Shown: piece after piece, positions 61,108 through 63,876 of the stretch
How positions within the stretch are numbered: the stretch's first letter is position 1
How the letters are laid out: each line of letters opens with the position of its first letter
Sequence record: OM632671.1
Strand: one strand, 5' to 3'
DNA from: Escherichia phage BEU50
DNA: 64,000 nt
The notes under the pieces: generated by a model
What the model saw: only the letters and a program-made list of their open reading frames with translations
Databases searched by the model: none
What the model was told of the DNA's origin: nothing
Program-made: the position numbers and the translations under genes

Positions 61108-61785
61108 ATGAGCACTGATGTTATTATAGATTTTGAAACATTCGGCAATACATCAAAAGCGGCTGTTATTGACCTTGCGGTTATTGCATATAATTCCGAC
61201 CCTGAAGTTGTTGAATCATTTGAAGAACTTGTTCAACGAGGTAAGCGAATTAAATTTAATTTAGCTTCTCAGAAAGGGAAGCGAGTTTTCGCTAAATCCA
61301 CTATGAAATGGTGGAAAGAACAATCGGCTGAAGCGCGTAAAAACTTGGCTCCGTCTGAAGACGATGTCACTACGCTTGAAGGCATTAAAATCTTTTTAGA
61401 CTATTGCCGAGCTAATAAAGTTGACCAATGGAAATCACAGATGTGGTGCCGTGGTATGAGCTTTGACTTCCCGATCTTGGTCGATTTGATTCGTGACCTC
61501 TATCGTGATGAAGGTGTTCTTGAACCAGATATTGATACTGATAAATTAGAACCGGTTAAATTCTGGGCTCAACGCGATATTCGTACGGCAATCGAAGCTT
61601 ACTCTTTGACACGAGGATTAAGTATGTGTCCATTACCGATGGGTACGCTAAAAGGATTCGTTGCCCATGATAGTATTCATGATTGTGCTAAAGATATTTT
61701 GATGTTAAAATATGCTCAGCGTTATGCGCTTGGCCTTGAAGATGTACCTGAGAATCCTGACCCGTTAAGTGTAAAACAGCGATAA
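61108..61785 (+). CDS. dexA: exonuclease A (DEDD family)
   Basis: IIDFETFG...AHDSIHDCAKDI matches T4 DexA. Confidence 0.85.
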   Translation: MSTDVIIDFETFGNTSKAAVIDLAVIAYNSDPEVVESFEELVQRGKRIKFNLASQKGKRVFAKSTMKWWKEQSAEARKNLAPSEDDVTTLEGIKIFLDYCRANKVDQWKSQMWCRGMSFDFPILVDLIRDLYRDEGVLEPDIDTDKLEPVKFWAQRDIRTAIEAYSLTRGLSMCPLPMGTLKGFVAHDSIHDCAKDILMLKYAQRYALGLEDVPENPDPLSVKQR

Positions 61786-61789
61786 AACA

Positions 61790-61819
61790 GTTTACAACCA
61801 AGGACGGTTGGAGTATAAT
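61790..61819 (+). promoter_or_regulatory. early promoter, CAACCAAGGA subfamily
   Basis: GTTTAC 61790-61795, TATAAT 61814-61819. Confidence 0.55.
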
Positions 61820-61850
61820 CTTTCTATCTTAACCAAACAGGAAAAACATT

Positions 61851-62345
61851 ATGAATATCAATACTACGGCTACTTACATCCTGAAAGACGAAAAACAAAT
61901 CAACTGGTACGGTGCTTCAGTGAGAGCTTATGAAAAGTTTTGTGAAATTTTAGGTGCCACTCAAGGTAATAGTTTCACTATTGTTAACTTCATCAAACAA
62001 GCTGAAGGCCCTTGGTTATTCTTAGAAATTAAAAATTCATACGGTACAATTTCTACTACCGCCCTTCCAAGCACCGACTTTGAACTGTTGATTGAAGAAG
62101 TAGAACCCGGTAAAGACATCTGTATTGATATGGATATCGCTTGTATGTACGGTACTCTGATTAAGCCTATTGAGCCTACTGATTTGTTGTGTAAAGCTGT
62201 TTCAATTCGACGTCCGTTCGCAGGTCCAGTGAGTGGATGGGTAACTGATCAATGGATTGAAGACGGTGTTGAACTTCTGAACGTTGTTCATGCAGGTGAT
62301 TTTAGTGTAGTTCCACGTAGTGCTGTGGTTAATATCCTTAATTAA
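61851..62345 (+). CDS. member of a tandem paralogous family (164 aa)
   Basis: Shares C-terminal GWVTDQWIEDG...LNVVHAGDFSVV with the next two genes. Confidence 0.55.
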   Translation: MNINTTATYILKDEKQINWYGASVRAYEKFCEILGATQGNSFTIVNFIKQAEGPWLFLEIKNSYGTISTTALPSTDFELLIEEVEPGKDICIDMDIACMYGTLIKPIEPTDLLCKAVSIRRPFAGPVSGWVTDQWIEDGVELLNVVHAGDFSVVPRSAVVNILN

Positions 62346-62346
62346 T

Positions 62347-62378
62347 GTTGTACATCCAAGGATGGATGGAGTATAGTG
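62347..62378 (+). promoter_or_regulatory. early promoter, CCAAGGATGG subfamily
   Basis: TTGTAC..CCAAGGATGGATGG..TATAGT. Confidence 0.45.
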
Positions 62379-62407
62379 AATTCAATTTAAACAAAGAGAG
62401 AAAAATT

Positions 62408-62863
62408 ATGATTACTATTGGTGAAATTAAGCGTGTATCGTCTGCATCTCGTTCTAAAGCTGCAGGTCGTCTAGTTGAAGTGGTAGGACTTCGTACTAAT
62501 GGTACTGGTCGTGTTAAAGAAGTTAAAGTTCGAATCATTCCTAGTTCTGGAAAAACTGAAACTCAGTACGCTTACGTAAGTCCTAAATTTTTGGAAACTC
62601 CTGTGAGCGCTCATTTTGCTTCTACTGAACCTAATGCACAGTTCAAATGGGCCCTTTGCAAAGGTGTTGAATTCCAGACGGATAAAGAATTTGACTTCAT
62701 CGATGAATACGGTTATCCAAGCAAAACTGATACTATGTGTGGCTTCATTAGTGACCAATGGGTTGAAGATGGTGAAAAGTTATACAATATCGTATTCTTA
62801 GGTGACTTCCGAGTTGTTAAAGAATCTGAAATCACTCGCTATGTGTCTCCTCGTAAAGCTTAA
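62408..62863 (+). CDS. member of a tandem paralogous family (151 aa)
   Basis: GFISDQWVEDGEKLYNIVFLGDFRVV; ATG 62408 after AGAGAG. Confidence 0.55.
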   Translation: MITIGEIKRVSSASRSKAAGRLVEVVGLRTNGTGRVKEVKVRIIPSSGKTETQYAYVSPKFLETPVSAHFASTEPNAQFKWALCKGVEFQTDKEFDFIDEYGYPSKTDTMCGFISDQWVEDGEKLYNIVFLGDFRVVKESEITRYVSPRKA

Positions 62864-62872
62864 GGAATTATT

Positions 62873-63292
62873 ATGAATATTGTAAATCTCTCTACAGGTG
62901 ATTATGTATATGTATCCGTTGCTTCTCGCTCTAAAGTTGCCGGGAAGTTGGTTGAAGTTCTTTCTGTGAGTGATCCGGTTTTTGGACGTAACGAAGTTAA
63001 AGTTCGTGACGCTGATGGTAACATTGGTTATGTCTCAAGCCAATTCATTGAACCAGAAGAAAAAGCGTTCAAATGGGGACTATGCAGATCAGTTTCTGTT
63101 GAAAAAGACCATGAATTCACTATTGCTGCGGCAACTGATGGAACACCGTGGAAAACTAAGCAAATCGCTGGATTTATTAGCGACCGTTGGGTAGAAGATG
63201 GTGTTAAGCTTTATAACATCGTTTTCGCTGGACAGTTCATGGTAGTTCCTGAATTCCAAATTAAAAAATATAGCCCAGCTGCTTTCGCATAA
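62873..63292 (+). CDS. member of a tandem paralogous family (139 aa)
   Basis: GFISDRWVEDGVKLYNIVFAGQFMVV. Confidence 0.55.
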   Translation: MNIVNLSTGDYVYVSVASRSKVAGKLVEVLSVSDPVFGRNEVKVRDADGNIGYVSSQFIEPEEKAFKWGLCRSVSVEKDHEFTIAAATDGTPWKTKQIAGFISDRWVEDGVKLYNIVFAGQFMVVPEFQIKKYSPAAFA

Positions 63293-63296
63293 AGTT

Positions 63297-63345
63297 GTTT
63301 ACTTCTCCTCTGGTTTTGGTATTATAACCATATCAACCAGAGGAG
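63297..63345 (+). promoter_or_regulatory. early promoter inside 11-bp perfect inverted repeat
   Basis: GTTTAC 63297-63302; CTCCTCTGGTT (63305-63315) / AACCAGAGGAG (63335-63345). Confidence 0.55.
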
Positions 63346-63351
63346 AATAAT

Positions 63352-63876
63352 ATGTTAGTTTACCGCGTAGAACGTAGTTTTTGTACTCAACGTGAATCAT
63401 TACCAGGAATTGCTATCGAAGACGGTAAAGCCGTCAGAATTTGGGAAACCTCTTGGAATAAAGAACCTCGCTCACCATACGGTTGGTCGGGCACCGACAA
63501 CTCTGAAGAAACATGGGAGTTCCTTGATAAACATGGAATAATCTCAGGTAATTTCTACCATCACGGCGACAACTATAACGTCCCTAATCGTCCTACAGTA
63601 AATGAAGACAAACTCCTTGAACAAAATATCTTAAGATACTATAGAATTGAGCACACATTTGAATTGAGTGAAGATTGGGCTCAAGGGTTCTATTTTGGAT
63701 TTGAAAGTGTTGACGCGGTTTATGCATGGTTTGATGACCAGGTGGATGTTGAACTCTTGAAAGCTAAAGGATACTACATCGCGGTCTATGAAGCACCTGA
63801 TTTCATCCTCGGAAGTTGTCAATTAATGTTCAGACGTTCATTGGCAGAACAAGTTGATTTTATTTTGCTAAAATGA
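63352..63876 (+). CDS. hypothetical protein (174 aa)
   Basis: ATG after AGGAGAA. Confidence 0.5.
   Translation: MLVYRVERSFCTQRESLPGIAIEDGKAVRIWETSWNKEPRSPYGWSGTDNSEETWEFLDKHGIISGNFYHHGDNYNVPNRPTVNEDKLLEQNILRYYRIEHTFELSEDWAQGFYFGFESVDAVYAWFDDQVDVELLKAKGYYIAVYEAPDFILGSCQLMFRRSLAEQVDFILLK

Follow-up and report, generated by a model that had tools for sequence, protein, structure and literature searches.

The three adjacent open reading frames (ORFs) downstream of dexA in Escherichia phage BEU50 (sequence record OM632671.1) very probably form the motB.1–motB–motB′ early-gene cluster of Mosigvirus, with all three products belonging to the MotB family; this reading best explains the region as a whole. 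The window, by which we mean the entire 64,000-nucleotide stretch analysed, is assigned on sequence to Mosigvirus as an RB69/PhAPEC2-like T-even phage, and Mosigvirus genomes related to RB69 (for example, PhAPEC2, NRG-P0074 and F27) share 97–99% nucleotide identity with this segment. An initial annotation had described three neighbouring ORFs behind dexA, and both the coordinates and the ORFs are correct. The upstream gene (61108–61785) encodes the DexA exonuclease, as identified by PF16473, phrog_255 and the RefSeq annotation of PhAPEC2. It is followed, on the + strand, by ORF1 (61851–62345), a motB.1 homolog encoding an acidic protein of 164 residues; ORF2 (62408–62863), a motB ortholog of 151 residues; ORF3 (62873–63292), a second motB paralog of 139 residues; and a motB.2 homolog (63352–63876), the product of which is 34% identical to T4 MotB.2 (E = 2e-16).

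Synteny with PhAPEC2 and T4 places ORF1–3 in the dda–dexA–cef early region. In the RefSeq annotation of PhAPEC2, the genes run srd, dda.1, dda, dexA, ‘similar to MotB.1’, MotB-like, MotB-like, ‘similar to MotB.2’, cef. The T4 order (dexA, motB.2, motB.1, motB, cef) differs from that of the window, in which the motB.2 homolog lies after the second motB, whereas in T4 motB.2 lies between dexA and motB.1. Earlier work has already described the family, the C-terminal domain common to its members, the differing N termini and the extra copy in RB69-like phages, and the finding is therefore a rediscovery, real but ordinary and of little weight as a discovery. The results presented here consist of homologies, domain boundaries, predicted folds, early-type promoters, purifying selection, and the gain and loss of a motB.1 cassette at repeated promoters.

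The shared domain and the MotB subfamilies

The initial annotation was built on a C-terminal motif of 23 residues. This motif is present in all three proteins (GWVTDQWIEDGVELLNVVHAGDF, GFISDQWVEDGEKLYNIVFLGDF and GFISDRWVEDGVKLYNIVFAGQF), but the shared part is a complete β-barrel domain of 57–75 residues, with 57 in ORF1 and 73–74 in ORF2 and ORF3. When the C-terminal parts are aligned alone, the homology of ORF1 to ORF2 and ORF3 takes in an LC(K/R)xV strand that precedes the quoted motif. The claim that the module is real stands, beyond chance: BLASTP gave E = 2e-11 for ORF1 versus ORF3, E = 2e-10 for ORF1 versus ORF2, and E = 1e-32 for ORF2 versus ORF3, which align over their full length with 44% identity across 145 residues. 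All three proteins score above the gathering score of 25 bits for the Pfam motB family PF17613 (InterPro: transcription regulator MotB) and so belong to the MotB family, at 34.9 bits for ORF1 (C-terminal part only, residues 92–159), 130.3 bits for ORF2 (E = 8e-38) and 76.3 bits for ORF3. They also carry the C-terminal core that characterizes the family, G-x-[VI]-[TS]-D-[QR]-W-[VI]-E-D-G...L-x-N-[VI]-V...G-x-[FY]-x-V-[VI], the columns of which are invariant in the alignments. As judged by tblastn, ORF1–3 account for the copies of the module in the whole 64-kb window; no further copy of the C-terminal domain was found elsewhere in it. The proposal that the N-terminal halves differ holds for ORF1 and fails for ORF2 and ORF3, which are homologous throughout.

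ORF1 matches phrog_2333 (E = 2e-82, residues 1–164) and is 38% identical to T4 MotB.1 over its whole length. It comprises an N-terminal β-barrel (approximately residues 1–82), a low-confidence linker bearing a conserved DMDIACMYGTLIKPI motif (residues 93–107) and a MotB-family C-terminal barrel (residues 108–164). The KOW-like N-terminal motifs S-R-S-K-A/V-A-G-K/R-L-V-E-V and E-V-K-V-R are absent, and ORF1 is therefore filed under MotB.1 instead of MotB proper. This placement agrees with the features that define the MotB.1 subfamily, namely full-length similarity and a non-KOW N-terminal barrel combined with the C-terminal domain DPTDLLCK...GWVTDQWIEDGVELLNVVH. ORF1 resembles T4 MotB.1 (NP_049627; phrog_2333; ‘Category 2’ of Patterson-West et al. 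2021) in its non-KOW N-terminal barrel and in its C-terminal core, DPTDLLCKAV.IRRPF...GWVTDQWIEDGVELLNVVHAG, but differs from it by an insertion of approximately 20 residues between the domains, within which lies a conserved DMDIACMYGTLIKP motif. The N-terminal domain of MotB.1 has been proposed to form an LSm-like barrel akin to those of GoF and Frd.2, and T4 lacking motB.1 shows an unchanged burst size and latent period (Kim et al. 2025, PMC12152347).

The reference annotations of this gene deserve a separate remark. The T4 reference MotB.1 has 119 residues and ends inside the C-terminal domain, owing to one additional base; the other T4 genome records listed do not have it. In RB69, the motB.1 of the reference sequence is broken by two single-T insertions into an ORF of 132 residues and a ‘peptide’ of 29 residues. 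Other genomes lack these inserted bases, and motB.1 of the window is one intact ORF of 164 residues. Published MotB.1 expression constructs were made from the 119-residue T4 reference form, which is missing more than half of the conserved domain.

ORF2 and ORF3 both carry the two KOW-like N-terminal motifs, as expected for MotB proper (‘Category 1’, PMC7827196). ORF2 matches phrog_1671 (E = 2e-64) and is 48% identical to T4 MotB over its full length, in an alignment that begins at the methionine encoded at 62408; ORF3 is 39% identical to T4 MotB. Both share with T4 MotB (NP_049626; PF17613 ‘motB, modifier of transcription’) the two-domain layout, the dexA–cef neighbourhood and an early-type promoter. 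They differ from it in that ORF2 is less basic overall (net charge +2 versus +6) and ORF3 is shorter (139 residues), lacks an inter-domain segment of approximately 20 residues and has no net positive charge. ORF3 is a diverged motB copy that has lost its net positive charge. T4 has one motB copy and the window has two. A close counterpart is the motB cluster of RB69 (RB69p010–p013), which belongs to the same genus and has the same gene order and near-identical sequences, ORF3 being 96% identical to RB69ORF010c. For RB69, two motB genes, one motB.1 and a 29-residue peptide matching the C-terminal core have been described (Patterson-West et al. 2021, PMC7827196).

Promoters, the motB.1 cassette and gene history

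A promoter scan gave three early-type sites on the + strand in and beside the cluster, the first two of which were compared with the T4 early-promoter consensus TTTACW-N17-TAYWAT (PMC4122927). A T4-type early promoter, TTTACA-N17-TATAAT (61791–61819; 11 of 12 matches), precedes ORF1; an early-type promoter, TGTACA-N17-TATAGT (62349–62377), precedes ORF2; and another, TTTACT-N16-TATTAT (63298–63325), lies at the right edge of the cluster before the motB.2 homolog. Predicted T4-type promoters upstream, together with the position between dda–dexA and cef, mark ORF1 and ORF2 as putative early genes. The start of ORF2 is likely to be the ATG at 62408 (151 residues), because the promoter lies 3′ of the ATG at 62345 and the alignment with T4 MotB begins at the 62408 methionine. 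The alternative start at 62345, which would give 172 residues, was rejected, as it lies upstream of the promoter at 62349–62377 and as most other orthologs, too, align from the 62408 methionine. ORF3 begins 9 nt past the ORF2 stop with its own AAGGA ribosome-binding site; it has no promoter of its own and is therefore probably co-transcribed with ORF2.

The promoters of ORF1 and ORF2 are embedded in a direct repeat of 54 nt on the + strand that spans promoter and leader (left copy, 61793–61846; right copy, 62351–62404), the two copies being 72% identical and 558 bp apart. In the Mosigvirus phage AV115, motB.1 is cleanly absent, and the two repeat copies are fused into one hybrid between dexA and motB. 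The motB.1 gene is a 558-bp cassette between repeated early promoters and has been gained or lost there. Shuffling of such promoter cassettes (PeSL) has been described for T4-type phages (Arbiol et al. 2010, PMC2839356; Comeau et al. 2014, PMC4122927), in which repeated early promoters likewise surround a small non-essential gene and recombination between the repeats explains gene presence or absence, as at the AV115 junction. By analogy, the loss of motB.1 in AV115 may be seen as resembling PeSL shuffling, with the difference that the likeness here is confined to the 54-nt repeat of promoter and 5′ leader. A PeSL also includes a stem-loop or terminator, and the stretch 61700–62410 yielded no terminator-like site.

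The initial annotation interpreted the cluster as a triplication within a diversifying family. That the genes are paralogs born of duplication is borne out; the history reads better, however, as an old duplication with replacement of the N-terminal domain (motB.1) and a separate duplication of motB. The duplications are old because motB and motB.1 both occur in T4 and because ORF2 and ORF3 are only 44% identical. A recent triplication was discarded: the DNA repeats between the copies are short and only 62–74% identical, and no pair of the proteins exceeds 44% identity. Nor is the term diversifying supported if it is taken to mean fast adaptive evolution. Nei–Gojobori counts were pooled over all pairs of 8–10 orthologs (the window plus seven to nine other genomes), and the resulting pN/pS values were 0.16 for ORF1, 0.27 for ORF2 and 0.19 for ORF3. 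When the N- and C-terminal parts were taken separately, the values ranged from 0.12 to 0.34, below 0.35 in both halves. Purifying selection maintains all three genes, and there is no gene-wide diversifying signal.

The family is conserved across hundreds of phage genomes. The ORF3 type, at an identity of at least 80%, is present in 207 of the 766 MotB-carrying phage records, among which no ORF3 match falls between 60% and 80% identity; this gap indicates that the ORF3 type is a discrete lineage. It also occurs beside motB.1 and motB in some Tequatrovirus genomes (RB9 and Shigella phage A2). In many phages, a C-terminal domain that is 75–88% identical to that of ORF1 stands behind unrelated N termini, and chimeras (P0148 and P0151) combine an ORF2-type N terminus with an ORF3-type C terminus. 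When a profile built from the C-terminal domains of ORF1–3 was run against 1.84 billion representative proteins, only 29 clusters at 50% identity were recovered, and this search did not support family members in bacteria or in other virus groups. Three long, multi-stretch profile matches (P0184–P0186, E = 4e-5 to 3e-4) resemble noise from repeat proteins. Most of the distant members inspected join a KOW-like N terminus to the C-terminal domain through a linker bearing a DxDVxSMY-type motif, which suggests that the form with KOW and C-terminal domains is ancestral and that the N-terminal domain of MotB.1 is a replacement.

Predicted folds and charge

The AlphaFold2 (AF2) model of ORF3, built with 28 homologs, contains two β-barrels (mean pLDDT 87.4, pTM 0.72). 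That of ORF1 (mean pLDDT 79.5) contains two barrels joined by a linker, residues 90–99 of which have a pLDDT below 50. Block-mean pLDDT values for the shared segment are 79–90 in ORF1 and 81–94 in ORF3. In ORF1, the predicted N-terminal strands span residues 8–11, 42–49, 55–61, 67–73 and 80–82 and the C-terminal strands span residues 116–119, 127–137, 140–147, 150–155 and 159–163; the C-terminal strands of ORF3 span residues 73–85, 92–108, 111–118, 121–126 and 130–133. The shared module is accordingly a five-stranded unit in both models. A generic low-complexity region, named by the initial annotation as the finding that would overturn it, is not what was observed, as the models give this segment four to five well-ordered β-strands.

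For ORF1 and ORF3 alike, the best neighbours in the PDB were the 53BP1 tandem Tudor domains and DSIF KOW6–KOW7 (Foldseek E of approximately 1e-3, probability 1.0, TM 0.3–0.45). These proteins are likewise tandem pairs of small five-stranded barrels, but their sequence identity to the phage proteins is 10–17% and the resemblance is one of fold only. Against BFVD, the ORF1 model matched MotB.1 proteins, MotB (E = 1e-6) and a KOW-domain phage protein, with GoF appearing weakly. The models of ORF1 and ORF3 may be read as two SH3-like barrels in tandem, with structural matches that are marginal (TM below 0.5) and that partly reflect two-domain geometry. Such a reading would agree with the published KOW call for the N-terminal domain of MotB and the LSm-like call for that of MotB.1. 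No OB-fold neighbour occurs among the top Foldseek hits listed for the two models, and the OB fold published for the C-terminal domain finds no support in the predicted structures. A PDB search with the ORF2 sequence gave no match at E up to 1; ORF2 therefore has no solved relative.

Computed net charge has diverged sharply among the paralogs, from a basic ORF2 to a neutral ORF3 and an acidic ORF1. ORF2 has a pI of 8.5 and a net charge of +2, which is divided between an N-terminal domain of pI 10.3 (net +7) and a C-terminal domain of net −5. ORF3 has a pI of 5.8 (net −1), and ORF1 has a pI of 4.5 (net −9, with −3 in the C-terminal domain). For T4 MotB, the corresponding values are a pI of 9.2 and a net charge of +6.

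Function and competing explanations

A 2021 study by Son et al. in NAR is said to deal, at least in part, with DNA compaction driven by MotB. Made early in infection and toxic to E. coli, T4 MotB binds DNA, whether modified or not, in a sequence-independent manner; it co-purifies with H-NS and StpA and increases burst size approximately two-fold (Patterson-West et al. 2018, PMC6070864). It alters H-NS footprints, and 75 host genes, about one-third of them in the H-NS regulon, are upregulated (PMC7827196). An alignment of 102 phage homologs showed that MotB and MotB.1 have a common C-terminal domain and different N-terminal domains; it was suggested that one of the two genes derives from duplication of the other, and HHpred placed the C-terminal domain in the cold-shock DNA-binding OB-fold family (Patterson-West et al. 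2021, PMC7827196). The role in host interaction that the initial annotation expected fits the founding member, T4 MotB, which takes part in host takeover through DNA binding, H-NS and StpA, and the upregulation of H-NS-repressed genes; the expectation is thus partly right.

By homology to T4 MotB, ORF2 would be made from its early promoter, coat DNA non-specifically, change the occupancy of H-NS on DNA and improve phage yield. The charge profile is consistent with DNA coating by ORF2, the basic KOW-like N-terminal domain of which (pI 10.3) would be the more plausible DNA-binding surface; it does not back such a role for ORF3 (pI 5.8). Transfer of the DNA-coating function to ORF1 (pI 4.5) and ORF3 is doubtful, because neither has the net positive charge of T4 MotB, and the two would be unlikely to act as simple DNA coaters. 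The shared C-terminal barrel would confer a common function. Given its acidity in ORF1 and ORF2, our guess is that it would serve common docking or self-association and would not be the place where DNA is mainly bound. Tentatively, the domain might be mainly a protein-interaction module, although T4 MotB has a slightly basic one (net +2). The different N-terminal domains would give different partners, DNA for ORF2 and others for ORF1 and ORF3.

Could the C-terminal barrel be the DNA-binding module instead, making all three proteins DNA coaters that their N-terminal domains modulate? It is the sole part conserved in all family members, and the HHpred cold-shock assignment (PMC7827196) would favour such a role. 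We nevertheless consider it somewhat unlikely, given that the domain carries a net negative charge in ORF1 (−3) and ORF2 (−5), that its invariant core D-Q-W-V-E-D-G is itself acidic, that the strongly basic part of ORF2 lies at the other end of the protein, and that the neighbours of the AF2 models are SH3-, Tudor- or KOW-like, with no OB-fold among the top hits listed. As for the absence of any real family, with similarity due to chance or low complexity, the BLASTP E values (1e-10 to 1e-32), the Pfam scores above the curated threshold, the ordered predicted strands and the presence in hundreds of phage genomes rule it out; the shortness of the motif originally quoted is the one point in its favour, and its probability is close to nil.

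Quite improbable, too, is an arms-race family, in which anti-defence or host-range factors duplicate and diversify rapidly under positive selection. The gene-wide pN/pS values of 0.16–0.27 in all three genes, and the low values in both halves, oppose it, as do the age of the paralogs (44% identity, with motB and motB.1 both in T4), the bimodal identities of ORF3 matches, which indicate two stable lineages and no continuum, and the normal burst of T4 lacking motB.1 in the laboratory (PMC12152347). Such a history would nonetheless suit a plastic early region that is bounded by repeated promoters and variable in gene content, with motB.1 absent from AV115, a second motB in 207 of the 766 MotB-carrying records, the chimeric copies P0148 and P0151, and N-terminal domains swapped between subfamilies. 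H-NS is, moreover, a xenogeneic silencer, so that MotB can be viewed as counter-defence (PMC7827196). On balance, we favour an old MotB-family cluster of motB.1, motB and a second motB.

Within that cluster, the paralogs might together constitute a phage ‘chromatin’ set with variant subunits, a proposal that we rate as unlikely. The common C-terminal domain would serve self-association or docking to H-NS and StpA; ORF2 would coat DNA; ORF3 and ORF1 would co-assemble via this domain and so cap, tune, detoxify or redirect the MotB coat (in the case of ORF1 perhaps towards RNA, by means of the LSm-like barrel); and the DxDVxSMY linker would act as a separate docking peptide. The side observations made here, namely the truncated motB.1 annotations in the T4 and RB69 references, the conserved linker motif and the charge divergence, may be of more use than the family assignment itself. 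The window contains an intact three-member family, which suits tests of a division of labour among basic, neutral and acidic MotB paralogs.

Frameshifts in the T4 and RB69 reference copies of motB.1

Comparison of the T4 reference motB.1 (NC_000866.4 2142-2330, minus strand) with window positions 62235-62345 revealed an additional G in the T4 sequence (ATTGGAAG versus ATTGAAG), and the resulting frame shift falls within the conserved C-terminal domain. The 119-aa MotB.1 of the T4 reference ends in GWVTDQWI-GRWR*, and the +1 frame reads on as EDGVELLNVVHAGEYSVVPRSAVVAILN*. Among the T4 records listed, the additional G is found only in AF158101.6 and NC_000866.4; 11 other T4 records and the near-identical phages RB55 and RB59 lack it across 79 matching nucleotides, and OZ035787 carries an intact motB.1 product of 143 aa. 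NC_000866.4 was the source of the motB.1 amber-mutant fragment in Kim et al. 2025 (PMC12152347), who give a size of 13.8 kDa for MotB.1. Because this value matches the size of the truncated form, over half of the C-terminal domain was probably missing from the MotB.1 that they expressed.

The RB69 reference is also disrupted. Relative to the window (61851-62345), the RB69 motB.1 region (NC_004928 2877-3373, minus strand) contains two single-T insertions, CCGTTTCGC and GACGGTTGTT, which break the gene into RB69p013 (132 aa) and RB69p012 (29 aa). This split accounts for the orphan 'Category 3' peptide reported in Patterson-West et al. 2021 (PMC7827196), which is the tail of motB.1.

A conserved linker motif in ORF1

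In ORF1, the motB.1 homologue of the window, residues 93-107 (DMDIACMYGTLIKPI, window 62127-62171) form a short conserved linker motif with the consensus D-x-D-[VI]-[AV]-[SC]-[MTA]-Y-x-x-x-[IVM]-x-P-[LI]. It overlaps the least confidently predicted stretch of the inter-domain linker (pLDDT <50, residues 90-99). The same motif occupies the extreme N-terminus of family members of ~180 aa, lies between two N-terminal barrels in those of ~245 aa and follows a KOW-like N-terminal domain in those of Klebsiella and Enterobacter phages. T4 MotB.1 does not have this motif. The motif in ORF1 may be a docking peptide.

Possible recombination and exchange in the early block

An early promoter and its leader are present as a 54-nt direct repeat (window 61793-61846 and 62351-62404; copies 72% identical) flanking a motB.1 cassette of 558 bp. 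Mosigvirus AV115 has no motB.1 and carries a hybrid promoter at the junction (AV115 locus 860-960), an arrangement consistent with recombination between the repeats. Three metagenomic proteins (P0148, P0149 and P0151) are chimeric MotB, with an N-terminal half of ORF2 type (the motB orthologue) in P0148 and P0151 and of T4 type in P0149, and a C-terminal half of ORF3 type (the second motB) in all three. Such chimeras would be expected if unequal recombination between the paralogues had reduced two genes to one.

The Tequatrovirus phages Shigella phage A2 and RB9 both contain ORF2-type and ORF3-type genes, with 84-89% nucleotide identity to those of the Mosigvirus window. Shigella phage A2 also has an ORF1-type motB.1, in place of which RB9 has a motB.1 of the T4 type (145 aa). 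This distribution suggests that the early block has been exchanged between genera. A MotB.2 homologue of 174 aa (window 63352-63876; phrog_1106), 34% identical to T4 MotB.2 and without a match in Pfam, is located after the second motB. By contrast, motB.2 sits between dexA and motB.1 in T4, RB9 and Shigella phage A2, and the gene order of the early block is thus rearranged between genera.
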